Shown: piece by piece, positions 44,048 to 63,542 of the stretch | Numbering within the stretch: the stretch's first letter is position 1 | How the letters are laid out: every line of letters begins with the position of its first letter | NCBI GenBank assembly: GCA_942493185.1 | Contig: OW818673.1 | Location: 1,823,517 to 1,887,516, forward strand | Source: an uncultured Bacillales bacterium | GTDB taxonomy: Bacteria; Bacillota_I; Bacilli_A; Izemoplasmatales; Hujiaoplasmataceae | Direction: 5' to 3' | DNA: 64,000 nt | Made by a program: the position numbers and the translations under genes | Notes under the pieces: model-generated | What the model saw: the letters and a program-made list of their open reading frames with translations, nothing else | What the model was told of the DNA's origin: nothing | The model's database searches: none

Positions 44048-44060
44048 AGAGGTGGCTTCG

Positions 44061-44369: not shown

Positions 44370-44371
44370 TC

Positions 44372-46627: not shown

Positions 46628-46629
46628 AT

Positions 46630-47541
46630 ATGGAGACAAAAAATAACTTAAAGGCTTGGCTGTATCTTGCGCCAATGCTGATATTAATGATTGTTTTCAC
46701 CTTTTACCCGTTAATTAACGCATTTGTCATCTCGTTTTACAAAGGATACCTCCCTTTAGGAAATGATGGAGCTGGCTCTATCACCGGTTATACCTTCGCA
46801 AACTATGGTGTTATTTTAAGAAACCAATTATTCTGGGATTCGATTAAAAACACCTTCACCCTCGCTTTTGTCTCAGTACCTATTTCGATTATCATCTCTT
46901 TGTTAATTGCTGTGGCCTTAAAAGCCATTCCAAAACTTAAAGGATTTTTCCAAACCATCTTTTTCCTTCCGTATGTTACCAACGGTATCGCCGTCGGTAT
47001 GACTTTCGCGGTTATGTTCCACCGCGAATATGGATTGTTTAATTTGGTCTTAAGTTGGTTTGGCATTGCTCCCATGGACTGGATTAATGGCGGGGCAACT
47101 TGGTGGGCTCAAATGGGTGCATTAATGATTTTCACCATTTGGGAAAGTTTGGCCTTTAAAATCCTCGTCTTCGCAAGCGGACTTCAAAACATTGATAAAC
47201 AATATTATGATGCCGCAAAAATCGATCACGCGACGAAATGGACGATTTTCAAACGCATTACCATTCCACTTTTATCGCCTTTAATTCTTTATATTTCCAT
47301 TACTTCTATGATTGGCGCATTGAAAGCCTATAACTCAGTCATTGGATTATTTGGTACAAATCTAGGGGGTCAACCCTACTCGATGATTACCATCGTTGCG
47401 TTCGTCTATAAGTACCGTTCTGATTTTGCGTTTGAAGGTTATTATAGTTACGCAGCCGCAGCAGCCATCATTCTGTTTTTCATTACACTCGTTTTTTCGC
47501 TGGTTCAAACCATGATCAGCAAAAAACGCGTGCATTATTAG
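46630..47541 (+). CDS. ABC importer permease (CUT1 family, MalF/UgpA-like)
   Basis: 303 aa, 6 predicted TM helices, EAA-like loop DAAKIDHATKWTIFKRITIP. Its start is 2 nt after the ATPase stop. Confidence 0.9.
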   Translation: METKNNLKAWLYLAPMLILMIVFTFYPLINAFVISFYKGYLPLGNDGAGSITGYTFANYGVILRNQLFWDSIKNTFTLAFVSVPISIIISLLIAVALKAIPKLKGFFQTIFFLPYVTNGIAVGMTFAVMFHREYGLFNLVLSWFGIAPMDWINGGATWWAQMGALMIFTIWESLAFKILVFASGLQNIDKQYYDAAKIDHATKWTIFKRITIPLLSPLILYISITSMIGALKAYNSVIGLFGTNLGGQPYSMITIVAFVYKYRSDFAFEGYYSYAAAAAIILFFITLVFSLVQTMISKKRVHY

Positions 47542-47553
47542 GGGGTGCTGACG

Positions 47554-48486
47554 ATGTCTGATGTTTATGTAAAAAATGAAGTATCTTACAAAACAAAGAA
47601 AATTATCGGCAATATTCTCACGTATTCCTTCTTGGCAGCCGTTGCCATTGTTGTCCTAGTGCCTTTTTATTGGATGATTCTGACCTCTTTAAAAAGCACT
47701 ATTATGATTGAACAGATTCCACCGTTGTTATTCCTAAGACCCTCTGAATGGCGCTTAAGCAACTATACCAGCCTCTTCGAAATTGTGCAGGGTGGCGCCA
47801 GAGACGGTCAACCCGTCTTCCCATTCTTCACCTATTTGGGAAATACAGTCTTAGTATCAATCATCACCACGATTGGCACAACGATTACCACGATTTTAGC
47901 CGCTTACGCGTTTGCGCGTTTAAACTTTAAAGGACGCGACATCGTATTCGCCATTATTCTTGGCACGATGATGATTCCTGGCGAAATCTTTATCTTAACA
48001 AACTTTATTACTGTTAACCGTTTAGGGTTATATGATATCAACAACCAAACCTTCTCGGATGCTTTAATTGCGATGACCTTGCCCTTTATGACCAGCGTAT
48101 TTTATACGTTTTATCTCAGACAAACGTTTAAACAAATTCCGAACGAGCTTTACTACGCTGCAAAAGTGGATGGTACCAGTGATTTTAAATATTTGTTAAA
48201 AATCATGATTCCGGTTGCCAGTCCCACCATCATCACCATCATTATTCTTAACTCCATGGGTGCATGGAGCGCCTATATCTGGCCGGCGATGGTTACTGCA
48301 AAAGACTCATTCCGACTTGTTTCCAACGGATTGCGCGGAGCATTTACGGATGCCGGTACCGGAAGAACCAACTTTGGACAACAAATGGCTTCAGCGACGC
48401 TTGTCACGTTACCATTACTCATCATCTTCTTTGTATTCCGCAAACAAATTATGCGCGGTGTATCTAGAAGCGGTATTAAAGGCTAA
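47554..48486 (+). CDS. ABC importer permease (CUT1 family, MalG/UgpE-like)
   Basis: EAA loop YAAKVDGTSDFKYLLKIMIPV. ATG at 47554 with RBS gggggtg. Confidence 0.9.
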   Translation: MSDVYVKNEVSYKTKKIIGNILTYSFLAAVAIVVLVPFYWMILTSLKSTIMIEQIPPLLFLRPSEWRLSNYTSLFEIVQGGARDGQPVFPFFTYLGNTVLVSIITTIGTTITTILAAYAFARLNFKGRDIVFAIILGTMMIPGEIFILTNFITVNRLGLYDINNQTFSDALIAMTLPFMTSVFYTFYLRQTFKQIPNELYYAAKVDGTSDFKYLLKIMIPVASPTIITIIILNSMGAWSAYIWPAMVTAKDSFRLVSNGLRGAFTDAGTGRTNFGQQMASATLVTLPLLIIFFVFRKQIMRGVSRSGIKG

Positions 48487-48539
48487 ACCCACGAAAGTGG
48501 ATTAATATAATCTACAAAAATAATTAAAGGAGAAAATAC

Positions 48540-50216
48540 ATGAAGAAAATCGTTCTTGGTTTTGTAACATTATTCAGTTTCTTCGCTTTGTTTGGTTGCG
48601 TTGAATACGCCACGACAACCACAACCGAAGAAATCACAACGACCACCTCAGGAACTGCCACCACGACTAAACTCAAGATGGATATTCCTACCGATGAAGT
48701 CGAAATCAATTTCTGGCACATTTATGGTCAAGGCAAAACCGCTTTGCTAGACCAAATTATCGCCGAATTCGAAGCGATGTATCCAAACGTAACCATCACT
48801 TCCACTTCGCAAACCGATTATAATACCTTAAGAGAAAAAATTAATCTAGGTATTTCTGTTGGTCAAGTTCCCACGATGGCATTAGGTTATCCCGACCATT
48901 TTGCAGGGTATATCAGTGCTGGTGCCGCTTATGCGCTCAACAACCTCATCTATTCCAACATCTCTTATGAAATTACCGACCCAACATCCACCATTTACGG
49001 TGAGTTCGTTGATGTCGCCGCTGATCTATCCGACTATGTTCCTGCTTACTTAGCAGAAAACAATCAATACGTTGGTGGATTGTATTACTCGATGCCTTAT
49101 TCGAAATCGACTGAAACAATGGCTGTCAACCGTACGGTTTTAAAAGCCCATGTTGCTGAGATTAGAGCCATTGGAATTACCATTTCCGATGAAGGATTCC
49201 TTTCTCATACCACGCCACTCACTTTTACACAACTACAAGCATTAAACGCAATCTTGGTTAGCACTATGGTTGATGAAAATGATAAGCCGATTACGGATGT
49301 TACCAACAAGAAATGCGCTTATTTACTCAACTACGATTCATCCGGAAATATGTACATCAATATGAGCCGTCAATGGAATGCTGGTTACACCAATTCCCAA
49401 GGCGACATCCTTATTGATAACGGCACCACCAAATCGATGCTTAATTACATCGATGCAATGTTCAACAACAGAACTTTTGCATTACCGGTTGCCTTTGGAC
49501 AAACTTATGGTTCAACCAACTTCAAATATGGTGATGTTTGCATGACCGTCGGTTCAACCGCCGGTGTTGCATACAATATTCCAACATTAGCTGACCCACA
49601 AGATAGCTTAAAGTTTGGAACCTTCAATGTTGATTTCTTACAAGTACCACAAATGGCCGCTACCGAAGGCGCTAATGTAACGTTAAGCGTTGGTTCAACG
49701 GACTATGAAGTTGAATCTTCGTTATCCGCTGTTCAACAAGGACCAAACATTGGTATTTTCTCGAAAGCTTCTACCAACGAAAAACTCTTTGCTTGGTTAT
49801 TCATCAAGTATTTAACATCCACCAATAACACTGCACTATGGGCGATGAACACTGGATACCTCCCAGTTCGTACATCCGCTTATACCACCAATATCCAAAT
49901 TCCGTTAACCAGCACTTATAGTGTTACTTACACCGAATTCTTACAGATTGCGACGGATTTCTGGGCCGCTGATGGCGCCGTTACATGGGCAGAAACCGAT
50001 GAACGTTGGGATTATCTTTATTCCTCAATGGTTGCGAATATTGCTAAGAACCAAACCGAATACTATCAATACGACCCCGCTTTCGCCGCAGGATCATCCA
50101 GCGCCGGATCCGCAACGGTTCGTGTTGAAGCTGGTATTTGCCTTGAATACATTTATAACAAGACAAAAACTCCGTTAGAAGCACTAAACTTCTTCAAAAA
50201 CCAAGTAGATTGGTAA
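48540..50216 (+). CDS. Oversized family-1 extracellular solute-binding lipoprotein (substrate unknown)
   Basis: 558 aa. Lipobox LFGC plus a poly-Thr linker. The start INFWHIYGQGKTALLDQIIAEFEAMYPNV is typical of family-1 SBPs. It is about 100-130 aa longer than usual sugar SBPs. Confidence 0.85.
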   Translation: MKKIVLGFVTLFSFFALFGCVEYATTTTTEEITTTTSGTATTTKLKMDIPTDEVEINFWHIYGQGKTALLDQIIAEFEAMYPNVTITSTSQTDYNTLREKINLGISVGQVPTMALGYPDHFAGYISAGAAYALNNLIYSNISYEITDPTSTIYGEFVDVAADLSDYVPAYLAENNQYVGGLYYSMPYSKSTETMAVNRTVLKAHVAEIRAIGITISDEGFLSHTTPLTFTQLQALNAILVSTMVDENDKPITDVTNKKCAYLLNYDSSGNMYINMSRQWNAGYTNSQGDILIDNGTTKSMLNYIDAMFNNRTFALPVAFGQTYGSTNFKYGDVCMTVGSTAGVAYNIPTLADPQDSLKFGTFNVDFLQVPQMAATEGANVTLSVGSTDYEVESSLSAVQQGPNIGIFSKASTNEKLFAWLFIKYLTSTNNTALWAMNTGYLPVRTSAYTTNIQIPLTSTYSVTYTEFLQIATDFWAADGAVTWAETDERWDYLYSSMVANIAKNQTEYYQYDPAFAAGSSSAGSATVRVEAGICLEYIYNKTKTPLEALNFFKNQVDW

Positions 50217-50243
50217 AATATCTGACACAAAGGACTGAATGAA

Positions 50244-51713
50244 ATGTTTAAAAAATTAACTTTGATCATACTTGCCGTTTTCCTCACCGTGGGAATTACT
50301 GCTTGCAACAAGACAACGACGGCCACCACGACCACTACGGAAACGACAACAAGCGATTCACTGGTATCACTCCCTAATTTAAATGGAGCGAACCGCGAAA
50401 CGATTACTTCAACGCTTGAAGGCCTTGGACTGACGGTTAAATATTTCTTCGATGTGACAACCCCTTTTACAAGCGAAAGTCAGTATGACAAGTTTGTTAA
50501 ATACGGAACCGACCTCGTTGCCGGCTCACAAGTTCAAATCGGCACCGAAGTCCGTGTTTATACCACCCCGCTTAATCTTTCCATCCAATACTATCCCAAT
50601 CTTGATGCTTCCTTGCAATTAGAAGTAGCGGATTATCAAGGAAAAGAATTTATTGAAGATGGCATTGGCGTAGTAACAGTCAACCGTTACGTGGATGGCG
50701 ATACCACTCAGTTTACCAGTGGATCCGAATCATTCTCAGTTCGATATTTAGGAATTGATACCCCAGAATCAACCGCATTGTATGAGGCTTGGGGAAAAGC
50801 CGCAGCCATCTACACGGAAAACAAATTGAAAAATGCTGAAACCATCGTTCTTGAAGCCGAAGGCGAAAGACAAGATGGTAATGGCAGATATCTCGCTTGG
50901 GTTTGGTACCGCGAGACCGCTGAAAGCAAATTCATTCTTCTCAATTTGGAATTGGTGGAATTAGCCTATTCTAAAAACAAAGTTGCCATCGGTTCAAAAT
51001 TTACGACCGTTCTGACTTTGGCAGACTGGAATGCCTCTTTGACGAAAAGAAGAGTTTGGGGAGAATTAGACCCCGCCTTTGATTACAGCAAAGAAGGAAC
51101 CCAAATGAGTATTCAGCATTTGATGGAGCATTTCGATGATTATGTCGGCTTAAAAGTCGTCGTCACCGGAACCATCACGAGAATGATTGGCAACAACATC
51201 TTTTTGCAGGATGAAAATGGTTATGGTGTTTATATGTACGCCGGGTTTACCACCTCCGCCCAACTTCAGTTGGGGGTTAATGTAACCATCGGCGCTTTAA
51301 CACCCACCTATTACAGTGGAAGTCCACAATTATCCAATTTTAACAAGATTAATTTAACGGTCAATTCTTCAGACAACATTGTTACACCCTTAGTCGTAAC
51401 GTATAACGATTTCACATTTAGTCGGATTGGCACACTAGTGACCATCCAGAATCTCACGATTACCGGAGTGAATGGTGCGAAAACAAGCATTTATGTAAAA
51501 GATGCTTTAAATCAAACATTCACCGTCCGAATCGATGACTCAACCGGCTTAAACGCCGATACTTTAGGTCTTACCGTCGGTCAGATCATCAGTGTCACTG
51601 GACCGCTCAGCTATTATGACTACGATTATGATAGTTCTAATACCAATTATGTTTATGAGCCTTCCAATTTCCAATTGATGTTAACGTCCGCCGATGATTT
51701 AGTAATAGAGTAA
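50244..51713 (+). CDS. Lipoprotein nuclease: PASTA-like module, staphylococcal-nuclease (SNase) domain, tandem OB-like modules
   Basis: 489 aa. Lipobox ITAC plus poly-Thr. LPNLNGANRETITSTLEGLGL...GTEVRVYT looks PASTA-like. The SNase core is VDGDTTQF...VRYLGIDTPES...GERQDGNGRYLAWVW...LNLELVELAYS. The C-terminal part (LKVVVTGTITRMIGNNIFLQDENGYGVYMY...) resembles the OB modules of YhcR/ExeM-type nucleases. Confidence 0.85.
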   Translation: MFKKLTLIILAVFLTVGITACNKTTTATTTTTETTTSDSLVSLPNLNGANRETITSTLEGLGLTVKYFFDVTTPFTSESQYDKFVKYGTDLVAGSQVQIGTEVRVYTTPLNLSIQYYPNLDASLQLEVADYQGKEFIEDGIGVVTVNRYVDGDTTQFTSGSESFSVRYLGIDTPESTALYEAWGKAAAIYTENKLKNAETIVLEAEGERQDGNGRYLAWVWYRETAESKFILLNLELVELAYSKNKVAIGSKFTTVLTLADWNASLTKRRVWGELDPAFDYSKEGTQMSIQHLMEHFDDYVGLKVVVTGTITRMIGNNIFLQDENGYGVYMYAGFTTSAQLQLGVNVTIGALTPTYYSGSPQLSNFNKINLTVNSSDNIVTPLVVTYNDFTFSRIGTLVTIQNLTITGVNGAKTSIYVKDALNQTFTVRIDDSTGLNADTLGLTVGQIISVTGPLSYYDYDYDSSNTNYVYEPSNFQLMLTSADDLVIE

Positions 51714-51746
51714 TAAGATTCAAAAATATACTATAGGAGGAATCAT

Positions 51747-54700
51747 ATGAAATTGTCTTTCAAGAAACTAGCCTTACTTGGATTAGCCTTGACTGCTATG
51801 TTCGTGCTTGTCGGTTGTGTTGAAAACACCACAACAACGACAACCCAATCAACATCCAGTCAAACCTCAGCGACACTCTCTGACACTCAGAAAGTTCAAG
51901 CTGTTTTGGATGGCATCACACTCGGTGATGTAACAGCCGTGACTGCTAATTTAACATTACCGACCGCAAGCGTTAATGGCGTTGCCATCTCTTGGTCAAC
52001 AGAGGATGCCGATATCGTCTCAGCAACAGGCGAAATCACAATCCCAGACTATGTTACCGGAGATCAAAGTGTTACATTGACCCTAACCGCTACTTTAAAT
52101 GCGGTAACATTGACAAAGACTTTTGAAGTTACTGTCAAATCCGAAACGGCTCAAGTTTTCCTAAACAGAGTCGCAGCTAGCATCATCATCGATGGTAGCG
52201 ATTCGATTGTTGCCAACTTTAAATTACCGGGAACAGCACAAGGTGCAACCATCGTTTGGTCTTCAAGCAACCTTGATGTAGTAACAATTGGTGCCGTTGC
52301 TGATGGCGAAGGATTCTACACCGCTACAGTAGTACGTCCAAAAATGGAAGATGGTGGCGTTAACACATCCGTCACATTGACCGCTGCTTTAACGATTGGA
52401 TCGACAACAGTAGAAGCCACTAAATCAGTTCGTATTATTGCTGAACCATTGGCTACTGTTTATACGTCTTTCCAAACGTTACATGAAACAGCCTTATTGA
52501 ATGATTATGTCGACCTCACCGGAACAGTATACGCTAAATTTAAACTTGGCTACTTCATGGTTGATACCGTTGGCAAATACATCGCCATCTATACAACCGA
52601 AGCCAACGCTTCCGCAGTTGCCATTGGCGATTCCGTTCATGTTAAAGGTTTGTATAAGAACTATAACACCTTATTCCAAATCTCGAACTTAACAAAACAA
52701 GAAGTCTTATCTTCTGGCAACCCAGTGAATATTACCAAAATCGTTTTAGAAGATGCAAATGATCTTCTTGACGTTGATTCTTCAAACAAATTGATTCATG
52801 GTCAAGTTTATACCATTACCGTAACACCACAATTAAGAGGTACTTATAACAACGTTTATCTATTTGCAGGTGCAACTCAAGTTGCGACTGTATATTACAA
52901 TTCACTTGCTGCTTCGATTGATGCTTTAGAAGAAGTTGTAGGCAAAGTTGTAACAATCGATGTTGTATATTACACCTTCTATTCAGGATCTAGCGTTTTA
53001 ACGCCTGGCGTACCTGAAGTTTATATTACCTTTGACGGCCTTGCTGCTGATATCGAACTTGCTCCACTCGTTGGACAAGAAGCTTTGGATGCAGATGCTG
53101 CCAATATCGCATTAACAACTGCTGTTGTCGGCGGACAATCCTTCACTCTTCCAACAACCGGCGGATATGGCTCAGCCATCGCTTGGTCAGTTACAACCGG
53201 CGGAGCTTATGCTTCGATCGCTAGCGGAAAATTGACATTCGTTGATGTTACCGCTGTTCAAGAAGTAACAGTTACTGCTAGCTTGACTATTGATGGAGTG
53301 GTTGATCCTACGACCAGAGTCTTCACGTTTACTGTGACTCCAATTACAACTTCAACCATCGCTCAAGTATGGGGATTGGCAAAGAACGACATCGCCCAAG
53401 TTGAAGGCACTGTATACTTCTTTATCAATAACGGTTACTTCGTATTTGATGGCACTGGATTGTTATTCATCTACACGACAGCTCCAGCAGGTACTGCACT
53501 TGGCGACAAATTAGTCATTTTCGGTACAGTTGACATTTATAACGGTCAACATCAAATTAAATCAGCTGTTGTTAAATCGGTTACTTCAACCGGCAACGCT
53601 TATGCACAAACACCTGTAACTTATGTTCCCGGAACGACAGCATTGGTAAGTGGACAAACTTACGCTGTTACCGCAACCATTAAAGAACTTACCGAAGGTG
53701 GATACACGAACCTATTCTTATTTGATGGCGAAACCAAATTAGCTCAAATCTACTATCGTTCAACCATTAATGGCTCATATGCCGCTTTACAAGCTAATAA
53801 GGATAAAGAAGTTATCGTTAATGTTGTATTCTATTATGTAAGTAATGAAGTAGTGTTCTTTGTATATCAAGAAGGTGCTGCAGGTATCGTATTTACTCCT
53901 GAACAACAAGCTGCTATTAACGCAGAAAACGTTACTACAAAAACATCAGTCGTAAGTGCTGAAGTCGTTGCTCTTCCCGCTTTGGAAGGCGCATCGACCA
54001 TCGTTTGGGCCGTTAAAGACGCTAATCCAAACGCAACCATCCTCGATGGAAATGTCACATACGCTACTGTTGCATCCGCAACACAAGTAACTTTAGTCGC
54101 AACCATCACATTTGACATGGGTGAAGCTGCAGATATCGTAGATGTCAAAGAAATCGTTGTTACCATTTCGACATATGCTGAAAAAGTATTAGAAGACAAA
54201 ACAGCATTAACCGTCGCTTTGACAGCCAATGAATTTGATGTTATCACTTTACCAGTTGCTGGATTAAATGGTTCGGCAATCACATGGGCTTTAACAGCTA
54301 CAGATAACGCTACATTAGCAGCGAACGTATTAACACTTGAATATCTCGGTGTTGAATACTCTGTTACCGTTACTGCTACCCTCGCTTTCGCAGCTGCTCC
54401 AGAAGCAACTGAAACCAAAGAATTTGTTATCGTTGTTTCTCCAGTGACCATTATTACTGAATTTGGTCCTTATACAACTCAAACAGCTGGCGCTTGGACA
54501 ATTCCAAATGCCGTCGGCGTATATATTAAGGGTGTTGTAACTGGATTTAATGGAACAAACGGAATCTTTGTTCAAGACGCTAGTGGCGATGCATTGTATG
54601 TTTATACACCAGCCATTGTTAGTTTAGTTGCTATAGGCGACGAAGTTGTCGTTTATGGTAATCTGGTTGATTACAAAACATCCTATGCTATTGAATACAG

Positions 54701-56102
54701 ATTTAGAGAAATCGACACCGCTTCACTAAAAACAAAATTAACAACCGGCAACGCCGTTGTCGTTACCACATTGACGGTTGCCGAAATCGAAGCCATGAAT
54801 TTCTATGAAAACTTAGGTAAAGTTATGGAAGTTACTGGATTCGTCGTTTCATACGATGCTTCCAACATTTACTTCAATTGGAAATTGGTAGGCGATCCCG
54901 CTGTTCAATACACGATTTCCTTCTATGATTCCTTAGCACCATGGTTGAGATCAGTATATCCTGCAGGCTCTGTACTCCCAGCCGTCCAATTCACATTAAC
55001 GAACATTTCGTCGAGCTTCACGAAAGTTTATGGCGGTAACTTAGTTATCACTATGACTGATGAAAATGCCATCGTTGCTGATTCTAAAAAACTTCCAGCT
55101 TCCTTAGAATTAGTAGCTAGCTATGTATTACCAACCCCAACGTTTGGTACTGCATTTGCCATTACAGCAATCTCAGCTGAATTGACTGCTTATATTACAA
55201 ATCAAGGCGTTGTAACATTGCCAGAAACGACAGATGCTGTTGGAACCATCACCATCTCTGTAACAAAAGGCACAGCTACTCCTCTAGATGTTGTGGTTGC
55301 AGTCACAATTAAAGCCATGACAGATGCTCAAAAATTAGCTGATGTCCTTGCTGATCTTCCCGCTACATTAGCATTAGCTTACCATTACACCATCCCAACA
55401 CAATACAGCGCTGTTTTCAGCGGTCTTGTAGTTCCAACAGAGTTGACCGGACTAGTAGCATTATCTGCTGATGCATCAAAACTTGAAATCGTTCGTCCTG
55501 CAGGAACTGCTCCAGCAATTGGAACCGTCACATTAACCGTTACTGTTGGTACCGCAACACAAAACGTTGACATCGCCATGACTGTTATGGGACTTACCGA
55601 TTTGTTCTTCTCTGAATACATCGAAGGCGGAAGTAATAACAAGGCTTTCGAGATTTACAACGGAACTGGCGCATCAGTTGATTTGTCAGCTTACTCGGTA
55701 GAATTATATGCTAACGGTGTTAGTGTTCCAGGTACTACTGTTGTTTTAACAGGAACTTTAGTTGACGGCGACGTTTATATCATTTTCAACTCTGGTTCAG
55801 TAGCTGGTATAACCTCAATTGGTGACCTTGCAAGCACATTGACTTATTACAATGGCGATGACGCATTAGTATTAAAACACAACGGCGTAATTATCGATGT
55901 TATCGGCCAAGTAGGAACTGACCCAGGCACTTTATGGGGTACTGCTGGCGTAAATAGCACTCTTAATATGACGCTCGTAAGAAAATCTACCGTTCATGTT
56001 GGAGACGTAGTAGCATCCGATCCGTTCGATCCATCTGTTGAATGGGATGCATACCCACAAGATACATTTACTTATCTCGGCTCTCACACAGAAGCAGAGT
56101 AA
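51747..56102 (+). CDS. Giant surface lipoprotein: about 7 Ig-like repeats, 3 OB-like modules, C-terminal lamin-tail domain (LTD); no catalytic domain recognised
   Basis: 1451 aa. Lipobox LVGC plus a Thr/Ser linker. Repeated L-P-x-x-x-x-G-x-x-I-x-W-S ... V-T-L-T-A-T Ig-like units. OB-like modules at about aa 237-440, 535-715 and 905-1100. LTD from aa ~1283 (nt ~55593): LFFSEYIEGGSNNKAFEIYNGTGASVDLSAY...YYNGDDALVLKHNG. Confidence 0.85.
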   Translation: MKLSFKKLALLGLALTAMFVLVGCVENTTTTTTQSTSSQTSATLSDTQKVQAVLDGITLGDVTAVTANLTLPTASVNGVAISWSTEDADIVSATGEITIPDYVTGDQSVTLTLTATLNAVTLTKTFEVTVKSETAQVFLNRVAASIIIDGSDSIVANFKLPGTAQGATIVWSSSNLDVVTIGAVADGEGFYTATVVRPKMEDGGVNTSVTLTAALTIGSTTVEATKSVRIIAEPLATVYTSFQTLHETALLNDYVDLTGTVYAKFKLGYFMVDTVGKYIAIYTTEANASAVAIGDSVHVKGLYKNYNTLFQISNLTKQEVLSSGNPVNITKIVLEDANDLLDVDSSNKLIHGQVYTITVTPQLRGTYNNVYLFAGATQVATVYYNSLAASIDALEEVVGKVVTIDVVYYTFYSGSSVLTPGVPEVYITFDGLAADIELAPLVGQEALDADAANIALTTAVVGGQSFTLPTTGGYGSAIAWSVTTGGAYASIASGKLTFVDVTAVQEVTVTASLTIDGVVDPTTRVFTFTVTPITTSTIAQVWGLAKNDIAQVEGTVYFFINNGYFVFDGTGLLFIYTTAPAGTALGDKLVIFGTVDIYNGQHQIKSAVVKSVTSTGNAYAQTPVTYVPGTTALVSGQTYAVTATIKELTEGGYTNLFLFDGETKLAQIYYRSTINGSYAALQANKDKEVIVNVVFYYVSNEVVFFVYQEGAAGIVFTPEQQAAINAENVTTKTSVVSAEVVALPALEGASTIVWAVKDANPNATILDGNVTYATVASATQVTLVATITFDMGEAADIVDVKEIVVTISTYAEKVLEDKTALTVALTANEFDVITLPVAGLNGSAITWALTATDNATLAANVLTLEYLGVEYSVTVTATLAFAAAPEATETKEFVIVVSPVTIITEFGPYTTQTAGAWTIPNAVGVYIKGVVTGFNGTNGIFVQDASGDALYVYTPAIVSLVAIGDEVVVYGNLVDYKTSYAIEYRFREIDTASLKTKLTTGNAVVVTTLTVAEIEAMNFYENLGKVMEVTGFVVSYDASNIYFNWKLVGDPAVQYTISFYDSLAPWLRSVYPAGSVLPAVQFTLTNISSSFTKVYGGNLVITMTDENAIVADSKKLPASLELVASYVLPTPTFGTAFAITAISAELTAYITNQGVVTLPETTDAVGTITISVTKGTATPLDVVVAVTIKAMTDAQKLADVLADLPATLALAYHYTIPTQYSAVFSGLVVPTELTGLVALSADASKLEIVRPAGTAPAIGTVTLTVTVGTATQNVDIAMTVMGLTDLFFSEYIEGGSNNKAFEIYNGTGASVDLSAYSVELYANGVSVPGTTVVLTGTLVDGDVYIIFNSGSVAGITSIGDLASTLTYYNGDDALVLKHNGVIIDVIGQVGTDPGTLWGTAGVNSTLNMTLVRKSTVHVGDVVASDPFDPSVEWDAYPQDTFTYLGSHTEAE

Positions 56103-56138
56103 ACGTTAATTTATCACATATATTTACAGATTTGAATT

Positions 56139-56170
56139 AAGGCGCAGCTGTCTTGGCTGTGCCTTTTTCT
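56139..56170 (+). terminator. Rho-independent terminator after the 1451-aa gene
   Basis: Stem aaggcgcagc / gctgtgcctt (one G-U pair) followed by T5. Confidence 0.7.
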
Positions 56171-56206
56171 TAATTTGAGAAAATGCATCGAGAAATAGAC
56201 CTAAAA

Positions 56207-56215
56207 TGATATAAT
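56207..56215 (+). promoter_or_regulatory. Extended -10 (TGATATAAT) for the second LTD lipoprotein gene
   Basis: Exact 9-mer 43 nt upstream of the ATG at 56258. Confidence 0.5.
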
Positions 56216-56257
56216 TGAATTAATATCTATCAAGTCAATTATATGAGAGGTCTATGT

Positions 56258-58183
56258 ATGAATTTGCGCAAATTTTTATTGATTTTCACACTCTTCATTG
56301 CATTATTTGGTATCGTTGCTTGTGATAAAAACGTTGAAACAACAACCACTACCGAATCTACATCAAGTACTCAATCAACCACATCAACGACTGTATCTTC
56401 AGGGACTACGATTACTACAACTACCACAAGCAATACCACAATCTCAACTACAACCACAACGACGACCGCTACAACCCAGGATCAAACTCTATTGCTTCTG
56501 GAAGCCGCTGCAAGTAACATCGTTATTGCTAATGCCGATAACATTACCGCTGATTTCCAATTACCCTCAAATGCTGGTTCCATTGAAATTGTTTGGGAGT
56601 CCAGTAATCCTGAAATCATTATTATTGCCTCAACCACTGTTTCGGTTGAAGAAGCCCAATTCTTTAATGTATTGGTAAACAGTCCCGCTGGTTCAGATGA
56701 GACTATTACTTTGACCGCAACTTTATCCTTAAATGCTCAGACGCTTGAAAGATCAATTCAATTAGTTGTAAAAGCGGAAGTGGGGCTATCGGCTTATAAT
56801 ACAGTAAGCGAAATGTATTCAACCGCCGTTTTAAATGAATATATTCAAATGTCGGGTTACGTCTATATGGTTTACGAAGCTGGATATGCAATTCTCGATT
56901 CGAATGGGGACGGACTTATTATCTATACAACCGTAGAAAATGCCGATTTGGTTCAGGTTGGCGATTATGTATCCGTTAAAGGCATTTATGCTCAGTATAA
57001 TACCCTTTTCCAATTAAAAGATTTAACGAAGCAATATATTTTAAGTCGGGGAAACAATGTTTCTGTATCTCCAATCATTTTAGAGAATCCACAGGATTTA
57101 TTAGCAGTAGATTCAGCCAATAAATTAAATCATGGAAAGATTTATACCATCACCACCGAAGTTTATATCAACGGTTCTGGAAATGTTGTCTTATATGATG
57201 GAGAAACTTACATAGGAACAGTCTATTATAATTCCAATGTTGACTCGATAAACGCACTTAAAGCCCATGACGGCGAAAAAGTGACCATCGATGTCTTATA
57301 TTATGTTCTTCATCCAACCGATGGTGTTCGAGTGGCCTTTGATGGATTAGAAGAAGACATTGAAGTTGTTCCCTACACGTTAGAACAAATGTTTAATCTA
57401 GATGGTCAAATCTTATCTGAACCAATTACCCTATCTGACTTATTTGAACTCCCCCAATTGTTATTCTCTACGTATGATGGCATCGTTATCTCAGAAGCGT
57501 TGGCCAACAATTTAACGTACGATGGAAATGAGTACGCAATTGTTCGCCCATCGAACATAGAAGGAAATGTATCCGGTACTTTGACAATTACCATTCGTAT
57601 TGGCGAAGAAACAAGAGAAGTTATTGTGAATGTTACGATTATAGCGGAATCATCAGCCAGCGCCACTGACTTGTTTATTAGTGAGTACATCGAAGGCGGA
57701 AGCTACAATAAACTAATAGAAATCTACAACGCAACCAATAGCGCAATTGATTTATCCGAATACACCCTAGAACTGTATGTTTGTGGCTCATCTTGTGCAA
57801 CAACCGCCTCAACGGTTCTCTCCTTAAGCGGCACACTCCAACCCGGTCAAACATTAGCGATATATAATGCCGGTGCCACCGCAGAATTTAAATTAAAAGC
57901 GAATATCAATGTCGAATCGAATCCTTTGGCCAATTTTAATGGCGATGATACGATTGTATTAAAACATAACGGCGATATCATTGATAGTATTGGACAAATT
58001 GGCACTGATCCCGGTGATTTTTGGGGCGATGTATCCGTATCCACGAAAGATATGACTCTGGTTCGTAAGCCATATATTAAATCAGGAGATACTAATCCTA
58101 ATGATGCCTATGATCCTAGCGCGGAGTGGATTGCATATGCAAAAGATACATATACTAATGTTGGAACGCATACCGTCGAATAA
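56258..58183 (+). CDS. Surface lipoprotein, shorter paralog of 51747-56102 (Ig-like repeat, one OB-like module, Ig-like unit, C-terminal LTD)
   Basis: About 641 aa from the ATG at 56258 (RBS gagagg). Lipobox IVAC plus a ~55-aa Thr/Ser-rich linker. It is colinear with aa ~140-440 of the 1451-aa protein (for example [19 protein letters not shown] versus KGLYKNYNTLFQISNLTKQ). LTD from nt ~57664: [31 protein letters not shown]...[13 protein letters not shown]. Confidence 0.85.
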   Translation: [641 protein letters not shown]

Positions 58184-58191
58184 TTAAAGAT

Positions 58192-58233
58192 AAAAAAAGA
58201 ACGCCAAGACATAAAAAATCTTGGCGTTTTTGT
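58192..58233. terminator. Bidirectional terminator (LTD gene / endonuclease I gene convergent)
   Basis: Perfect 10-bp stem aacgccaaga / tcttggcgtt with A-run and T-run flanks. Confidence 0.8.
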
Positions 58234-58250
58234 TCATCAATTTTTATTGA

Positions 58251-59540
58251 TTAAGACCAAATCATGTCCACAAATTGTGGATAATCAATGAATGGATTAC
58301 GGTTATGTTGGAATGAATAGATTTTGTCGTTGCGGTTTCTTTCAAAATCATCGACAGGGTCTAAATCGTGCCATTCCAATAACGTATCAAGTTTTCCCAT
58401 TTGATTGGTTGTTGGCGTTGTATTTACTAACGAATATATTTGATACATAATAACCATATAGAATAATATTCTAGCTAAATCGCCTCGCACTTCTAGTCGG
58501 GTGGGAGCATAGCTGACGGAAGTTGTCAAATCATCATAAAATTTATTACCACGGCTGGAATTGGTTGAGGGATTAGCGGGTTTCAGATTATGAAGATCAC
58601 TTGCGGCATTGACCGTTCCGTTATCAGCGGGAACCCCTAATAATGATTGCGGCCACACATGTTCTCGGTTCCATGTGATACCACCATCCCATGCGCCGCT
58701 AACAGAAGTACCCAGATAAACCAAAATGAGATTGTTCGCATTATTGGGGTCTCTATCGGTATCATCGAGCATGTATCTTGCATCCCCATAAGTGACGCCA
58801 ACAAAACCGGTGTGGACGATGATTCTTAGTTGACTAACCAACTGTGTTCCTGTTAAACCTTCAGCGCTTTGGTAATATTCTGTTAATACAAGGGTATCTT
58901 CAGAAATTGTAATGGTGAAAGAAGATTCTAAGCCCAGTACGGATATGATGACCTCAACTTCACCAACCGTTGACATATCCACATCGTTTAGAGAATATTG
59001 CGAATTTGTTAAAGTAATATAAGAGGTATCTTCACCCACAAGTTTAACCACCATTCCGGTTAAATCAAGAGTTTCGTTAACGGAATATTCTAGTTTTGTT
59101 GGCGGGGTAACGGATAATGTAAATGAGAAGTTTATGGGTGTTTCTTTGACATAGACCACAAAGGTCTTTGTAAAAGTAGCATAAGTAACCGTAATTGTTT
59201 GCATACCCGGTGTTTGGTTGTCATAACCAGAGACAGTATATACTTCACTTGATAAAACGGTTTTATCGCCCAATCCGTTAATAGCACTGACAATTAGACC
59301 GGTTAAATCGAGTGATTCACCCAATTCATAAACATTTTTGTATGTACCGGATAACTCAATATCAACGTCGTGTTGCCACCATGTACCAGAGGTGAGATAC
59401 TCCGTTGTCGTAGAAGCGGTGGTTTCTGTGGTTGCTGTTGTTGTTGTGCTGGAAGTGGTAAATAAGTCACAAGCAAGAACGGAAAAACTGGTTAATAAGA
59501 TTAAAAGAAATGCGATTATTTTTTTTGTGTAAAATGTCAT
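58251..59540 (-). CDS. Lipoprotein Endonuclease I family nuclease with two N-terminal Ig-like domains
   Basis: 429 aa. Lipobox VLAC plus poly-Thr. Two units of the Y-x-x-G/N-E-x-L-D-L-T-G-L/M-x-V ... V-T/I-V type. The Endonuclease I core carries NREHVWPQS, DLHNLKPANPSTNSSRGN, RGDLARILFYM and NRNDKIYSFQHNRNPFIDYP. Confidence 0.88.
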   Translation of the reverse strand: MTFYTKKIIAFLLILLTSFSVLACDLFTTSSTTTTATTETTASTTTEYLTSGTWWQHDVDIELSGTYKNVYELGESLDLTGLIVSAINGLGDKTVLSSEVYTVSGYDNQTPGMQTITVTYATFTKTFVVYVKETPINFSFTLSVTPPTKLEYSVNETLDLTGMVVKLVGEDTSYITLTNSQYSLNDVDMSTVGEVEVIISVLGLESSFTITISEDTLVLTEYYQSAEGLTGTQLVSQLRIIVHTGFVGVTYGDARYMLDDTDRDPNNANNLILVYLGTSVSGAWDGGITWNREHVWPQSLLGVPADNGTVNAASDLHNLKPANPSTNSSRGNKFYDDLTTSVSYAPTRLEVRGDLARILFYMVIMYQIYSLVNTTPTTNQMGKLDTLLEWHDLDPVDDFERNRNDKIYSFQHNRNPFIDYPQFVDMIWS

Positions 59541-59690
59541 AATAGCCCAACCTTTATATAGAGTAATGAAGTGTATTTAGTATACCACAATTTTTGGATA
59601 ATTCCAATTGTTTCTATCATGCCCCCTACCCCAATAAAGTGCAATACAAGCCATTTTAGAAGCCTTTATCTTTCTATCTCGAATATTCCA

Positions 59691-59699
59691 TGATATAAT
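59691..59699 (+). promoter_or_regulatory. Extended -10 (TGATATAAT) for the DHH gene pair
   Basis: Exact 9-mer 32 nt upstream of the ATG at 59731. Confidence 0.5.
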
Positions 59700-59730
59700 A
59701 TAATACTCTAAAGAATATGGAGTTTATGAA

Positions 59731-60666
59731 ATGACAAAAACAATCATCGACTTAATCAATGAAAACCAAAAAATAATTATCTTACGCCATAAAGATCCCG
59801 ACTTAGACGCATACGGGTCACAATTTGGATTATATTATGCACTAAAAGCCAAATTTCCCAATAAACAAATAAGTGCCGTTGGCGATACCAATGCATTAAA
59901 TCGTTTTGAACCGTTAAGTACTGTTTTACCTTCAGATTATCAAGAGTCCTTGGTATTTATCTTGGATACTGTTTCCAAACAAATGCTTGAAGGATCTTTA
60001 TACGAACAATCAAAAACACTTGTTTTGATTGATCACCATCAAAACGAACCCGATATTCGTTATGACCACTATATAAGGAATACAAGCGCGTCCTCGTGCG
60101 CGGAGATGATTGCGAGTTTCTTGCTTGAAAATCATATCCCGATTCCTTTAAATTCAGCGGGCGCTTTATTTACCGGGATTGTATCTGATACAGGTCGGTT
60201 CTTATATCGAAACGTCACAGCAACATCCTTTGAAATTGCGGCTAAATTAATCGCAACCGGCCTTGATATTCAACCCATTTACGCCCAAATGTATTCTGAA
60301 CCCTTACAAAACAAACGCTTAAAAGCGATCTTCTTTAGTACCGTTCAGTTCTCAAAACATCACGTTGCTTACCGAAAGAACGATGAGGACTTCTTAAAAG
60401 CCAATAATATTGATTCTTACAGCGTTAGCCGTGGGATGGTTAATCAAATGTCTGGTATTGATGAAGTGCCGATTTGGGCAAACTTTACATATGACCAAAA
60501 AACTGGTAAAATCTTATGTGAGCTCCGCTCTAAAAACATCGCCATTGTCGATGTTGCAAAAAAATATGGCGGCGGTGGACACTTAAACGCTTGTGGCTGT
60601 ATGGTATCATCGTGGGAAGAAACGGATTTAATCATACAAGATTTAGATAACCTATTGGAGGAATAA
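59731..60666 (+). CDS. nrnA: DHH/DHHA1 phosphoesterase (NrnA-like nanoRNase / pAp phosphatase)
   Basis: 311 aa with HKDPDLDAYGS, ILDT, DHH (LIDHHQN), SDTGRF, and the DHHA1 motif GGGGHLNACG. Confidence 0.85.
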   Translation: MTKTIIDLINENQKIIILRHKDPDLDAYGSQFGLYYALKAKFPNKQISAVGDTNALNRFEPLSTVLPSDYQESLVFILDTVSKQMLEGSLYEQSKTLVLIDHHQNEPDIRYDHYIRNTSASSCAEMIASFLLENHIPIPLNSAGALFTGIVSDTGRFLYRNVTATSFEIAAKLIATGLDIQPIYAQMYSEPLQNKRLKAIFFSTVQFSKHHVAYRKNDEDFLKANNIDSYSVSRGMVNQMSGIDEVPIWANFTYDQKTGKILCELRSKNIAIVDVAKKYGGGGHLNACGCMVSSWEETDLIIQDLDNLLEE

Positions 60667-60667
60667 C

Positions 60668-61633
60668 ATGGACAAACAATTTATACTAGATAAGATTTTA
60701 GCGTACAAAAAAATCATCATACACATGCATATGCGTCCAGATGGCGACTGCTACGGCGCCGGATTTGGACTAAAGCACATTCTTAAAGAATCATTTCCCG
60801 AAAAAGAAGTTTACATTGTTGGCGAAACGGCCGATTATGTTAAATTTATCGGCGATGTGGATATCATCACAGATGAAACCTACCAAGGAGCTTTATCGAT
60901 TGTGGTGGATACTGCCACAAAAGACCGTGTTGCAGATCAACGCTTTGTAAAAGGCGAATACGTCATTAAAATTGATCATCATCTCCCAGTAGATCAATAC
61001 GGGGATTACCAATACGTGGATGTTACAAGACCGGCAACCTCACAAATCATTTTGGAATTTTACTTAGAATATTCCAATATTTTGAAACTCAATATGGCCG
61101 CAGCTAGAGCGCTATACACCGGCATCGTCACCGATACCGGTCGGTTCAAATACCGTTCAGTTACCGCTGATACCTTTAAAGCCGTCGCTCATTTAATCGA
61201 TTTTGGCCTTGATTTTGGTAATATCCTAACAATGTTAGATGTTAAAACCGAAAATCAAATGAAACTTCAAGGTTATGTCTTACAAAACTTCGAAAAGACA
61301 CCCAATGGCGTTGCCTATATCAAAATGTCTCCAGACATCATTAAAAAATTCAATGTTTCTTTAGAAGAAGCAACCTCCTTGGTCAACGAATTATCGTGTT
61401 TAGAGGATTGCCCGGTATGGATGTTATTCGCTGAATACGAAAACAACATTGTCAGAGCCAGACTACGTTCAAAAGGCCCCGCCATCAACTTGTTAGCCAA
61501 CAAATATGACGGCGGCGGACACCCCATGGCCTGCGGAGCCAATGTTGGAAACTGGGAAACGGTTGATAAGATTTTAAAAGACGCAGACGATTTAGTTAAA
61601 GAGTATAAAGCCAATTTAAAGCCAATCGCTTAA
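60668..61633 (+). CDS. Second DHH/DHHA1 phosphoesterase (NrnA/Pde2-like paralog)
   Basis: 321 aa with HMRPDGDCYGAG, VVDT, IDHH, TDTGRFKY and GGGHPMACG. Its start is 1 nt after the previous stop. Confidence 0.85.
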   Translation: MDKQFILDKILAYKKIIIHMHMRPDGDCYGAGFGLKHILKESFPEKEVYIVGETADYVKFIGDVDIITDETYQGALSIVVDTATKDRVADQRFVKGEYVIKIDHHLPVDQYGDYQYVDVTRPATSQIILEFYLEYSNILKLNMAAARALYTGIVTDTGRFKYRSVTADTFKAVAHLIDFGLDFGNILTMLDVKTENQMKLQGYVLQNFEKTPNGVAYIKMSPDIIKKFNVSLEEATSLVNELSCLEDCPVWMLFAEYENNIVRARLRSKGPAINLLANKYDGGGHPMACGANVGNWETVDKILKDADDLVKEYKANLKPIA

Positions 61634-61655
61634 TCAAACTTATTCATTCATTACG

Positions 61656-61696
61656 AGAGCTATTCCCCGTATTCTTATCGGGAATAGCTCTTTCTA
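61656..61696 (+). terminator. Rho-independent terminator after the DHH pair
   Basis: 12-bp perfect stem agagctattccc / gggaatagctct followed by a T-rich tail. Confidence 0.8.
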
Positions 61697-61760
61697 TTTA
61701 TATTTTATGCAATTAATCGAATGAAAGTGTTTTTATATTATTCTTTTATTGAAGCGGATT

Positions 61761-61769
61761 TGATATAAT
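61761..61769 (+). promoter_or_regulatory. Extended -10 (TGATATAAT) upstream of the Na/Pi cotransporter gene
   Basis: Exact 9-mer about 95 nt upstream of the start codon. Confidence 0.45.
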
Positions 61770-61865
61770 GATAGCGGCTGAGAAAACCATAAAAACAATT
61801 TGCCTTCTGGCAATTCAATGATATAACTTTACAACATTCGACACACTATAAATCGGAGGGTTTGC

Positions 61866-63542
61866 ATGCTGCTAATGGATATCGTAATTGATTGGCAATG
61901 GACCATTTTTCACATCGTCGGCGGTCTTGGAATTTTTTTATACGGAATAAACCTCATGGGCGATTCGCTCAAAAAGATCGCAGGTAAAAAATTAAAAATC
62001 ATTTTAGAAAAAACAACGAACACGCCCCTTAAAGGAATTTTCGTTGGTATTATCGTTACTGGATTAATCCAGTCCTCTTCGGCAACCACCGTTTTAGTGG
62101 TTGGCTTAGTCCGCGCCGGCTTGATGACTTTACCGCAAGCGGTTGGTGTTATATTTGGTGCTAACATAGGTACCACCATCACCTCCATTTTAATCGGGTT
62201 AGACATAGGAGCTTATGCACTTCCCATCATGTTTGTGGGTAGTGCCTTGTCATTCTTCTTCCAAGGTAAAAAAATACGCGATATTGGAAAAACTATTTTA
62301 GGCTTTGGAATGATGTTTTTCGGACTCGAATTAATGGGTGATTCATTAAAACAATTGGCTCAGTTACCCAGCTTTGCAAATATGCTCTTATCCGTCGCAC
62401 ATTACCCAATTCTAGGGGTTTTAGTCGGACTTGGCACCACAGTGGTCATTCAATCTTCTTCGGCGACCATTGGTCTATTACAACAACTATTCGTGACTGG
62501 CGGTATTCCTTTAGTTGGCGCTATTGCCATCGTATTGGGAGATAACATTGGCACAACGATTACTTCTGTAATCGCTTCAATTGGGGCACCTTCTGCCGCG
62601 AAGCGATCAGCAGCGATTCATGTCATGTTTAACTTAATTGGTAGTGTCGTCTTTTTCATCTTATTGACGCCTTATACAGCTGTAGTAGCTTGGGTTAGTG
62701 AAAGCATGGTAGGCGCTGGCTATTTGACCGATAAATTAACCGTATCAGTTGCCCACGTTTTGTTTAACGTCATCAACGTCTTCGTCTTGTATTGGTTTAT
62801 CAAACAAATGGTTTGGGTGGTAACCAAGCTTATCCCCTCTAAAAACGAAGTGGTTATCGACGACATCGTTTTAGATGAATCGTTGGTTCAAAACTCGGCC
62901 GTCCTTGCGTTGGAAAACTCGAAAAAAGCGATTATCAATATGGGAAATGTTTGCCGCGCGATGTTTGAATATGCGTACGATTATTCCTTTGAAAATGTGG
63001 CGAAGAACCGTGAAATGGGTTTGCAATGCGAAGAAATTATTGATGGCATGGATGACAAGATTCATAACTATTTGGTCCGGGTCGGAGCGGGAGAATTAGG
63101 CCGTTACGAAATGACGGAAATGGCCAAACAAATTGATACGATCAGTGACTTTGAACGTATTGGCGACCATTTGACCAATTTGATTGAATTCTTCGAAGAA
63201 CGCTATAACCAAAAAATCGATTTACATCCTGAAGCAAAAGCCGATTTGGTCGATTTATATACCTTATTAAGAAAGACCTTGCATCAGTCGCTACAAGCCT
63301 TTGATTCTAAAGACAAAAACGTTGCGACGGAAGTCAATGTCCGTGAAAACGAATTAGACAAACTCGTCAAAAAGTATCGTAAAAACCATATCAACCGGAT
63401 TAATGACAAAACCTGTTCTGAAACCGAAGCGGGATTTTACGTCGATATCCTTTCGAATATGGAACGCATTGGCGACCATTGCAATAACATCGTTGTTAAT
63501 GTGCTTTCTGAGAGTTATTCGCATGACGATAATTTCTTTTAA
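61866..63542 (+). CDS. Na+/phosphate cotransporter (NptA/YjbB type) with a C-terminal PhoU-like domain
   Basis: 558 aa. Duplicated QSSSATT/QSSSATI and GANIGTT/GDNIGTT motifs of the Na/Pi-cotransporter family. C-terminal paired ERIGDH motifs (PhoU-like). Confidence 0.9.
   Translation: MLLMDIVIDWQWTIFHIVGGLGIFLYGINLMGDSLKKIAGKKLKIILEKTTNTPLKGIFVGIIVTGLIQSSSATTVLVVGLVRAGLMTLPQAVGVIFGANIGTTITSILIGLDIGAYALPIMFVGSALSFFFQGKKIRDIGKTILGFGMMFFGLELMGDSLKQLAQLPSFANMLLSVAHYPILGVLVGLGTTVVIQSSSATIGLLQQLFVTGGIPLVGAIAIVLGDNIGTTITSVIASIGAPSAAKRSAAIHVMFNLIGSVVFFILLTPYTAVVAWVSESMVGAGYLTDKLTVSVAHVLFNVINVFVLYWFIKQMVWVVTKLIPSKNEVVIDDIVLDESLVQNSAVLALENSKKAIINMGNVCRAMFEYAYDYSFENVAKNREMGLQCEEIIDGMDDKIHNYLVRVGAGELGRYEMTEMAKQIDTISDFERIGDHLTNLIEFFEERYNQKIDLHPEAKADLVDLYTLLRKTLHQSLQAFDSKDKNVATEVNVRENELDKLVKKYRKNHINRINDKTCSETEAGFYVDILSNMERIGDHCNNIVVNVLSESYSHDDNFF

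Follow-up and report, generated by a model that had tools for sequence, protein, structure and literature searches.

Adjacent genes A (51747-56102) and B (56258-58183) in a 64-kb stretch of contig OW818673.1 from an uncultured Bacillales bacterium (the window, whose positions serve as coordinates throughout) encode two large paralogous proteins that combine immunoglobulin (Ig)-like units, oligonucleotide/oligosaccharide-binding (OB) folds and a single C-terminal lamin-tail domain (LTD). They are probably non-catalytic, lipid-anchored surface proteins of a locus, conserved among wall-less marine bacteria, for scavenging extracellular nucleic acids. We favor a function in capturing such polymers because of the structural matches of the OB folds, the homology to ExeM/NucH-type nucleases, the fusions in which the modules occur, the gene content of the locus and the layout of its operons, the DNA-degrading habit of related organisms, and the lack of a catalytic domain. 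Nucleic-acid binding by A and B is predicted from fold class, domain fusions and gene context; the proteins may further hand over their ligand to nucleases and a transporter, and the LTD might play a part of its own.

The notion that such a protein holds DNA was already published in 2021 and is not new here. In their account of DNA-degradation loci in Candidatus Izemoplasmatales, Wasmund et al. (Nat Microbiol, PMC8289736, Fig. 6 and supplementary text) hypothesized that a large protein combining an LTD with YhcR-like OB folds holds polymeric DNA near the cell, which would let other secreted nucleases and the transporter work efficiently. Their locus resembles the present one in that an ABC transporter, secreted nucleases, 3'-5' nucleases/phosphohydrolases and a phosphate transporter are also found around A and B, and their large protein resembles A and B in its YhcR-type OB folds, its LTD and its predicted secretion. 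It differs in that a C-terminal endonuclease I domain was reported for their 1,049-aa protein, whereas in the window endonuclease I is encoded by a separate gene; that nuclease-domain label does not hold for A, B and the relatives that we rescanned, all of which are non-catalytic. The tandem-OB anatomy of the module, its range of two to five copies, a conserved small paralog with its own promoter-like site, fusions to solute-binding proteins (SBPs) and the mosaic center of A are undescribed there and new here, though these findings overturn no current view. Izemoplasmatales degrade extracellular DNA, and cultured strains induce genes of homologous clusters on DNA or RNA (PMC8289736, PMC8397711, PMC10470597); the EddB (~20-fold) and hypothetical protein (~27-fold) induced in these strains could not be mapped onto orthologs of A or B (PMC8397711, PMC10470597). 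A search of the literature for further studies of Mollicutes LTD/OB lipoproteins returned nothing relevant.

Domain architecture of the two paralogs

Gene A encodes a protein of 1451 amino acids (aa), identical to the NCBI gene call. The listed reading frame of gene B (56243-58183, plus strand) comprises 646 aa, within which the true start is the ATG at 56258, because a GAGAGG ribosome-binding site lies 8 nt upstream and because the matching position is where the NCBI gene call begins and also where P0001, a homolog with 97% identity, begins. The resulting 641-aa protein, exactly the NCBI-called one from the same contig as A, is a single-module version of A with an LTD, as a preliminary description of this DNA had stated. 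Residue numbers of B domains given below follow the 646-aa frame. Two further open reading frames (ORFs), one of 194 aa on the minus strand inside gene A (53867-54451) and one of 126 aa inside gene B, were treated as spurious overlaps.

Both proteins are predicted to be bacterial lipoproteins with a signal peptide ending in a lipobox (LVGC with Cys24 in A, IVAC with Cys27 in B), whose Cys is nearly invariant across the homolog alignment. It is followed by a Thr/Ser-rich linker that is disordered in the B model. A Thr/Ser-rich stretch is found right after the lipobox Cys in all six predicted lipoproteins of the window (34351-35835, 48540-50216, 50244-51713, 51747-56102, 56258-58183 and 58251-59540), is longest in B (~55 aa), and may represent a stalk or glycosylation region.

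Alignments of B with A run colinearly over A residues 3-641 (30% identity, E 1e-74) and 1204-1448 (42%, E 1e-54), and B additionally aligns to A residues 447-890 and 769-1194. Given that B matches several stretches of A, the two are paralogs, with A containing internal repeats. Self-BLAST of A recovers the identity match alone, and the repeats were instead demonstrated with hidden Markov models (HMMs); those used to place the domains of A were built from an alignment of B-family homologs. Gene A thus reads as signal/lipobox, Ig-Ig, tandem OB 1, Ig, tandem OB 2, Ig-Ig, tandem OB 3, Ig-Ig, LTD, and gene B as signal/lipobox, linker, Ig, tandem OB, Ig, LTD:

51747-56102, plus strand: gene A, 1451-aa lipoprotein
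51747-51818, plus strand: A signal peptide with lipobox LVG-C24, then short Thr/Ser-rich linker; homologs share the same N-terminus
51897-52442, plus strand: A Ig-like units 1-2 (aa 51-133, 138-232; aBig_2); best Pfam aBig_2 stretch 61-132, HMM E 1.5e-10 and 8.6e-21
52452-53051, plus strand: A module 1 (aa 236-435), OB 236-329 and second OB-like barrel 331-435; HMM E 3e-61, NCBIfam ExeM_NucH positions 38-144
53052-53339, plus strand: A Ig-like unit 3 (aa 436-531), weakly scoring; HMM E 0.005-0.014, motif L-P..G..I.W.S present
53358-53852, plus strand: A module 2 (aa 538-702), OB 544-619 and second barrel 629-701; HMM E 1.1e-24
53889-54446, plus strand: A Ig-like units 4-5 (aa ~715-900); Pfam counts four aBig_2 stretches in A, weak HMM matches 741-794 and 866-898, motif in the sequence
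54489-55031, plus strand: A module 3 (aa 915-1095), OB 925-983 followed by a diverged second half; HMM E 1.1e-12 (925-1027)
55047-55586, plus strand: A Ig-like units 6-7 (aa 1101-1191, 1189-1280), of the type preceding the LTD in B; HMM E 6.8e-15 and 2.1e-14
55596-56090, plus strand: A lamin-tail domain (aa 1284-1448), ExeM N-terminal type; Pfam LTD E 3.6e-12, NCBIfam ExeM positions 13-174, HMM E 7e-62
56258-58183, plus strand: gene B, 641-aa lipoprotein
56492-56782, plus strand: B Ig-like unit (aa 84-180; aBig_2); Pfam 96-178, model pLDDT ~85-90, aligns to the aBig_2-like domain of arabinanase AbnA (5ho0)
56783-57358, plus strand: B tandem-OB module (aa 181-372); AlphaFold2 model and Foldseek
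57359-57652, plus strand: B helix and second Ig-like unit (aa 373-470); model and HMM
57653-58180, plus strand: B lamin-tail domain (aa 471-646); Pfam LTD E 5.5e-18, Foldseek match to the lamin-B1 tail (3umn; probability 1.0, TM 0.64)

The three modules of ~190 aa described earlier for A are borne out by these scores, and alignment of the four modules of the window shows the expected motif, in which G, V, G, D, G, YT, GD, G and Y are invariant. The second half of A module 3 is too diverged for an HMM score; the module aligns to residues 412-552 of the nucleases P0025/P0017, which carry a domain of the endonuclease/exonuclease/phosphatase (EEP) type. Ig-like units do precede the modules as described, and the two between module 3 and the LTD had gone unlisted. 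The only Pfam families in the two proteins are aBig_2 (A has four stretches, B two) and a single LTD at each C-terminus: aBig_2 (PF20578) scores 118.3 bits in A (E 1e-34) and 27.9 bits in B, over a gathering threshold of 27, and the LTD (PF00932) 47.1 and 65.8 bits, over a threshold of 34.3. The LTD has several invariant polar residues (D476, E484, K490, E493, N496, D569, D581, R608 and H643). An identical 17-mer, TACATCGAAGGCGGAAG, noted previously in the two LTDs, is indeed present at 55617 and 57686; it falls within YIEGGS, the most conserved LTD motif, and we reject it as independent evidence since at this position the identity reflects homology. A sequence search of the PDB with the family profile recovered the aBig_2-like domain of AbnA and signal-peptide noise only, and is uninformative on function.

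To these profiles we added an AlphaFold2 model of B, made from 13 sequences, and a separate model of the B module (residues 181-372). The B model is confident outside the linker and all-beta apart from short helices. In the module model (pLDDT 91.7) two barrels follow each other, both with the succession of strands 1-3, a helix and strands 4-5, which makes each module a predicted tandem pair of OB folds. Its best Foldseek matches in the PDB, with probabilities of ~1.0, are nucleic-acid-binding OB folds, in tandem or single: POT1, Oxytricha TEBP-alpha, RPA, ribosomal protein S1, the AB domains of Teb1, the HIN domains of IFI16, the anticodon domains of Asn/Asp-tRNA synthetases and the OB fold of PolC; no toxin- or carbohydrate-type OB is found among the top 50 matches. 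Three relatives (P0042, P0120, P0130) have a precomputed Pfam assignment to tRNA_anti-codon, and a fourth (P0133) has a sub-threshold match to it (20.5 against 27 bits). By strand and helix order (five-stranded barrels with a helix between strands 3 and 4) and structural likeness the modelled module belongs to the nucleic-acid-binding OB-fold superfamily. The whole B chain has two meaningful single-domain matches, the OB-fold protein YgiW of E. coli and the lamin-B1 tail; a SusE-like protein (4ak1) is among its weak matches, and others, such as alpha2-macroglobulin and cadherins (TM ~0.1), are meaningless multi-Ig alignments.

The lack of nuclease domains in A and B, proposed in the preliminary description, was upheld by every approach used. 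Pfam and NCBIfam searches at E<=1 detect no EEP (PF03372/PF19580), SNase, HNH or Endonuclease_1 domain in either protein, and Foldseek finds no catalytic fold in the model of B or of the module. Endonuclease I (PF04231) is absent from A and B at E<=1 and from five relatives (P0116, P0119, P0122, P0133 and P0138) at E<=0.01. Likewise, no carbohydrate-binding module (CBM) or glycoside hydrolase (GH) family matches A or B (E<=1) or the five relatives, and the Pfam scan of A and B shows no HhH family of the ComEA type.

Relationship to secreted nucleases and distribution of the module

A and B are related to the ExeM/Xds/NucH nucleases (NCBIfam NF033680, NF033681). They share with these the LTD subtype SEY-x-EG-x-NK-x-E-x-YN at 49-58% identity, the LTD of A being 57-58% identical to those of EEP nucleases, as well as a homologous OB region, which the OB profile detects in the nucleases between the N-terminal LTD and the C-terminal EEP domain; both domains are specifically of the ExeM/NucH type. 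Yet the defining EEP domain is absent: nothing in A or B aligns with the EEP part (661-936) of P0020, and matches to the NCBIfam ExeM and ExeM/NucH models are confined to non-catalytic positions (13-174 of 884 and ~15-162 of 546) with scores far under the cut-offs (85.3 and 82.2 against 1300 bits; 44.3 and 24 against 300 bits). Given that no part aligns with the EEP domain while the LTD and OB folds are of this type, A and B hold exactly the accessory domains of ExeM/NucH without the enzyme part. They further differ in that the LTD is N-terminal in the nucleases and C-terminal in A and B, in that aBig_2 units alternate with multiplied OB modules in A and B, and in that a predicted lipid anchor takes the place of the GlyGly-CTERM anchor. 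The nucleases are envelope-associated and act on extracellular DNA, and A and B probably share both features.

Previous work on these nucleases bears on the likely contribution of each domain. In ExeM (Shewanella) and Xds (Vibrio) deletion of the homologous OB region abolishes nuclease activity and the EEP domain is essential, while the LTD is dispensable for activity in Xds and largely so in ExeM (PMC6085458, PMC6746945). The LTD is also unnecessary for localization of Xds, and ExeM without it is slower in vitro (PMC6085458, PMC6746945).

The preliminary description had gone further in viewing A and B as a split version of the usual single-polypeptide nuclease, and this did not stand. With a custom EEP HMM that picks up 28 control proteins, no ORF of the window is matched (best E 0.87); the separately encoded nuclease lipoproteins that do flank A and B, as had been noted, belong to other superfamilies (SNase at 50244-51713, Endonuclease I at 58251-59540), the SNase protein has its own OB fold in cis, and the LTD is C-terminal. 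A second point of comparison is Bacillus subtilis YhcR, which unites OB folds with SNase and nucleotidase domains: the same OB subfamily again stands beside a sugar-nonspecific surface nuclease, and the window SNase lipoprotein likewise has an OB fold in cis, but A and B have neither an SNase nor a nucleotidase domain.

Full-length relatives of A and B come from metagenome-assembled genomes labelled Candidatus Izemoplasmatales, uncultured Bacillales or Bacillota. A survey of copy number, such as had been suggested, showed that the large paralog measures between 1076 and 1947 aa and has two to five OB modules; nearly all of its members are lipoproteins, and no catalytic Pfam domain was found in these relatives. 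The small single-module paralog is kept beside it across related loci. An exhaustive profile search detected the module in 1,629 cluster representatives, 340 of them at E<=1e-10. We looked more closely at the 132 newly found representatives among the top 150: a lipobox-like N-terminus is present in 92, and in about 110 the Ig, OB and LTD units leave no unassigned stretch of at least 300 aa. The module is fused to an EEP domain in P0257 and P0284, and to a PLD-type domain in P0270. A different kind of fusion is exemplified by P0190, in which SBP_bac_8 (35% identical to the window SBP), three OB modules and an LTD form one polypeptide; further SBP-OB fusions occur with SBP_bac_8 (P0203, P0209) and SBP_bac_5 (P0214, P0164). 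The fused SBP_bac_8 domains, which are from other organisms, are 34-37% identical to the SBP encoded at 48540-50216. These SBP-OB(-LTD) fusions speak for physical cooperation between the OB/LTD proteins and the importer, and they make coupling of binder and transporter a testable hypothesis.

A and B are the fastest-evolving genes of the locus (45500-63542). Across the related contigs L001, L003/L007, L005, L008 and L009, identity to the window is 60-86% for the transporter, NrnA and Na/Pi proteins and only 24-53% for the Ig/OB parts of A and B. A sharper picture of this divergence is offered by metagenome contig L085 (k141_184513), whose nucleotide identity to the window is 98.9% over 47501-52173 and 96.5% over 54447-59588. 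Between these, the center of A (52173-54447, aa ~143-900; 2.3 kb) gives no blastn alignment with the corresponding 3.5 kb of L085 (4719-8190), and A has three OB modules against four in the L085 homolog. The same center is 64-93% identical to other proteins (P0117, P0118); over A residues 960-1080 the best match is P0116 (93-100%), followed, L085 aside, by P0120 (81-93%). This suggests that the center of A is a mosaic allele shaped by cassette recombination, a chimera of metagenome assembly being the alternative.

The surrounding locus and a proposed route for nucleic-acid use

The other genes and signals of the locus are as follows:

45500-50216, plus strand: ABC importer, with ATPase (UgpC-like, TOBE), two permeases (UgpA/E-like) and a 558-aa SBP_bac_8 lipoprotein
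48540-50216, plus strand: the SBP_bac_8 lipoprotein of this importer set, 558 aa
50244-51713, plus strand: SNase-domain lipoprotein, 489 aa; Pfam SNase, NucI/EcnA-like, with lipobox; ends 33 nt before A
56139-56165, plus strand: strong terminator-like hairpin with 12-bp stem and T run, directly 3' of A
56188-56215, plus strand: promoter-like site TCGAGA-16-TG-TATAAT with extended -10 before B; consensus match only
58200-58228, minus strand: terminator-like hairpin between the convergent B and Endonuclease I genes
58251-59540, minus strand: Endonuclease I lipoprotein, 429 aa, with two Big_3 domains; convergent with B
59731-61633, plus strand: two NrnA-like DHH/DHHA1 phosphoesterases without signal peptides; predicted cytoplasmic oligonucleotide degradation
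61866-63542, plus strand: Na/Pi cotransporter with PhoU domains

The order ABC transporter, SBP, SNase, A, B, Endonuclease I, two NrnA, Na/Pi is conserved in at least six related contigs of the Candidatus Izemoplasmatales type (L001, L003/L007, L005, L008, L009 and L085). Going by consensus matches only, A looks like the last gene of a transporter/SNase operon, and B like a separate unit. The SNase lipoprotein has an OB of the module type after its nuclease domain (aa 305-380, HMM E 1e-6), a YhcR-like layout that places accessory OB folds of this locus both in cis and in trans; a second, unscored OB motif is visible by eye near aa 400-470.

In the route that we envisage, flexible chains of Ig-like spacers would display one (B) or three (A) tandem-OB modules and the terminal LTD away from the membrane, and the OB pairs would make multivalent contacts with polymeric DNA or RNA and retain it at the surface of the cell. 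There the co-anchored SNase and Endonuclease I lipoproteins would cut the captured polymer, the adjacent binding protein and ABC importer would take up the products, the two cytoplasmic NrnA-like enzymes would finish short oligonucleotides, and the Na/Pi transporter would take up released phosphate. Extracellular DNA is a major source of phosphorus, nitrogen and carbon in sediments, and Izemoplasmatales are thought to specialize on DNA. If correct, capture of DNA would account for the way in which a cell lacking a wall retains at its surface a diffusible polymer and the products of its digestion, and would define a compact nucleic-acid utilization locus comprising binder, nucleases, importer, oligonucleotide-finishing enzymes and phosphate transporter. 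The 192-aa tandem-OB module and the 165-aa LTD are defined targets for recombinant work.

A parallel is offered by the SusE/F-like lipoproteins of polysaccharide utilization loci (PULs), which are non-catalytic, lipid-anchored, multi-domain beta-sandwich proteins, encoded beside degradative enzymes and an importer, that capture polymer at the surface. A and B may resemble these in layout and proposed capture role, by analogy only; the binding domains are non-homologous, and substrate, transporter type and phylum differ. A bolder extension, which we advance tentatively and would not yet back at even chances, is that A and B represent a widespread unrecognized class of nucleic-acid capture lipoproteins (~1,600 clusters, most of them lipoproteins without an enzyme domain), a nucleic-acid counterpart of the PUL glycan-binding proteins, with a multivalent grip, hand-over to nucleases and directly to the ABC binding protein, and cassettes reshuffled within populations.

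Several observations weigh against nucleic-acid capture. Mature A has a net charge of -78 (pI 4.2) and mature B of -54 (pI 4.05), and the OB domains are neutral to acidic, merely the least acidic parts of the two proteins. Such acidity is atypical of DNA binders, and binding would need cation bridging or stacking. The Foldseek E-values of the module are modest (1e-4 to 1e-3), YgiW, with a BOF-type OB, is also a good match to it, and OB folds are able to bind other ligands. Moreover, aBig_2 and LTD are also present in glycoside hydrolases and fimbrillin-like proteins, and the ABC system is closest to UgpC/A/E-type transporters.

Alternative explanations and minor features of the locus

With these points in mind, it is conceivable, if unlikely, that A and B are scaffolds in which Ig units and LTD organize the SNase, Endonuclease I and SBP lipoproteins by protein-protein contacts, the OB pairs being structural or partner-binding. 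The LTD has been suggested to tether proteins (PMC6085458, PMC6746945), the SBP fusions fit a physical association equally well, OB folds can mediate protein-protein contacts, and the acidic surface argues against direct contact with DNA. However, the LTD of Xds is not needed for localization, and the OB type of A and B is the very one required for activity of ExeM and Xds, recurs with three unrelated nuclease superfamilies, and is multiplied two to five times, which suits avidity for a polymer better than docking.

Somewhat more improbable is a ligand other than nucleic acid, be it a polysaccharide, a teichoic-acid-like or another phosphodiester polymer, or a role as general adhesins. The name of the OB fold itself encompasses oligosaccharides, aBig_2 is present in GH43 and GH32 enzymes and LTDs in fimbrillin-like and glycan-associated proteins, the importer is Ugp/CUT1-like, and A and B are acidic. 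Against this, no CBM family is matched, the structural neighbors of the module are nucleic-acid binders, and the locus has two nucleases, two NrnA-like genes and a phosphate transporter but no glycoside hydrolase.

Given the diversification of A and B, one might also ask if they are mainly variable surface antigens or decoys for evading phages or predators, with the OB content incidental. Many Mollicutes lipoproteins are variable surface antigens; the center of A is mosaic, being unalignable by blastn between contigs that share 96-99% identity on either side of it, module number varies, and both proteins diverge faster than all their neighbors. We regard this as very unlikely, for domain types, their order and the position in the locus are strictly conserved over deep divergence, the diversification is compatible with a binding role, and chimeras of metagenome assembly could exaggerate the mosaicism. 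Just as doubtful is a role as receptors for uptake of intact DNA in natural transformation rather than feeding: multivalent DNA binding at the surface would serve competence too and ComE/ComF genes are induced by nucleic acids in strain zrk29, but the conserved operon contains nucleases, ABC importer, NrnA and phosphate transporter, competence genes are absent from the locus, and no HhH/ComEA-type domain was found. Finally, that A and B are cryptic enzymes, for instance with an unrecognized hydrolytic activity in the LTD, is barely credible in spite of its many invariant polar residues (D/E/N/K/R/H) and the slower action of ExeM without an LTD, since activity does not depend on the LTD in Xds, and depends on it little in ExeM, whereas EEP is essential, neither model has a catalytic fold, and the invariant acidic/Asn set might equally fit a Ca2+ site.

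Capture of nucleic acids by A and B thus remains our preferred reading, and we record some minor features around their locus. Immediately upstream, the ABC genes are preceded by dnaX, ybaB and recR (42101-44971). In Hujiaoplasma nucleasis zrk29, the nucleic acid-degradation locus is drawn with a nucleoid-associated protein and RecR as well, the latter reported to be induced ~27-fold (PMC10470597); this probably reflects read-through or neighborhood rather than function. Between recR and the gene for the ABC ATPase is a 104-aa ORF (45061-45375) with no Pfam match, and a promoter-like site (45079-45107) lies within or near it. About 10 kb upstream, a metallophosphoesterase of the purple-acid-phosphatase type (34351-35835) has the lipobox LFGC and a T-rich linker like those of the locus lipoproteins, and may be a further phosphate-scavenging surface enzyme. 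In L003 an insertion sequence element with HTH and rve integrase genes (8776-9845) is inserted between the large and small LTD genes, and the Izemoplasmatales contig L016 (1-3713) contains an apparent duplicated unit, an LTD protein followed by Endonuclease I twice, upstream of the NrnA pair.

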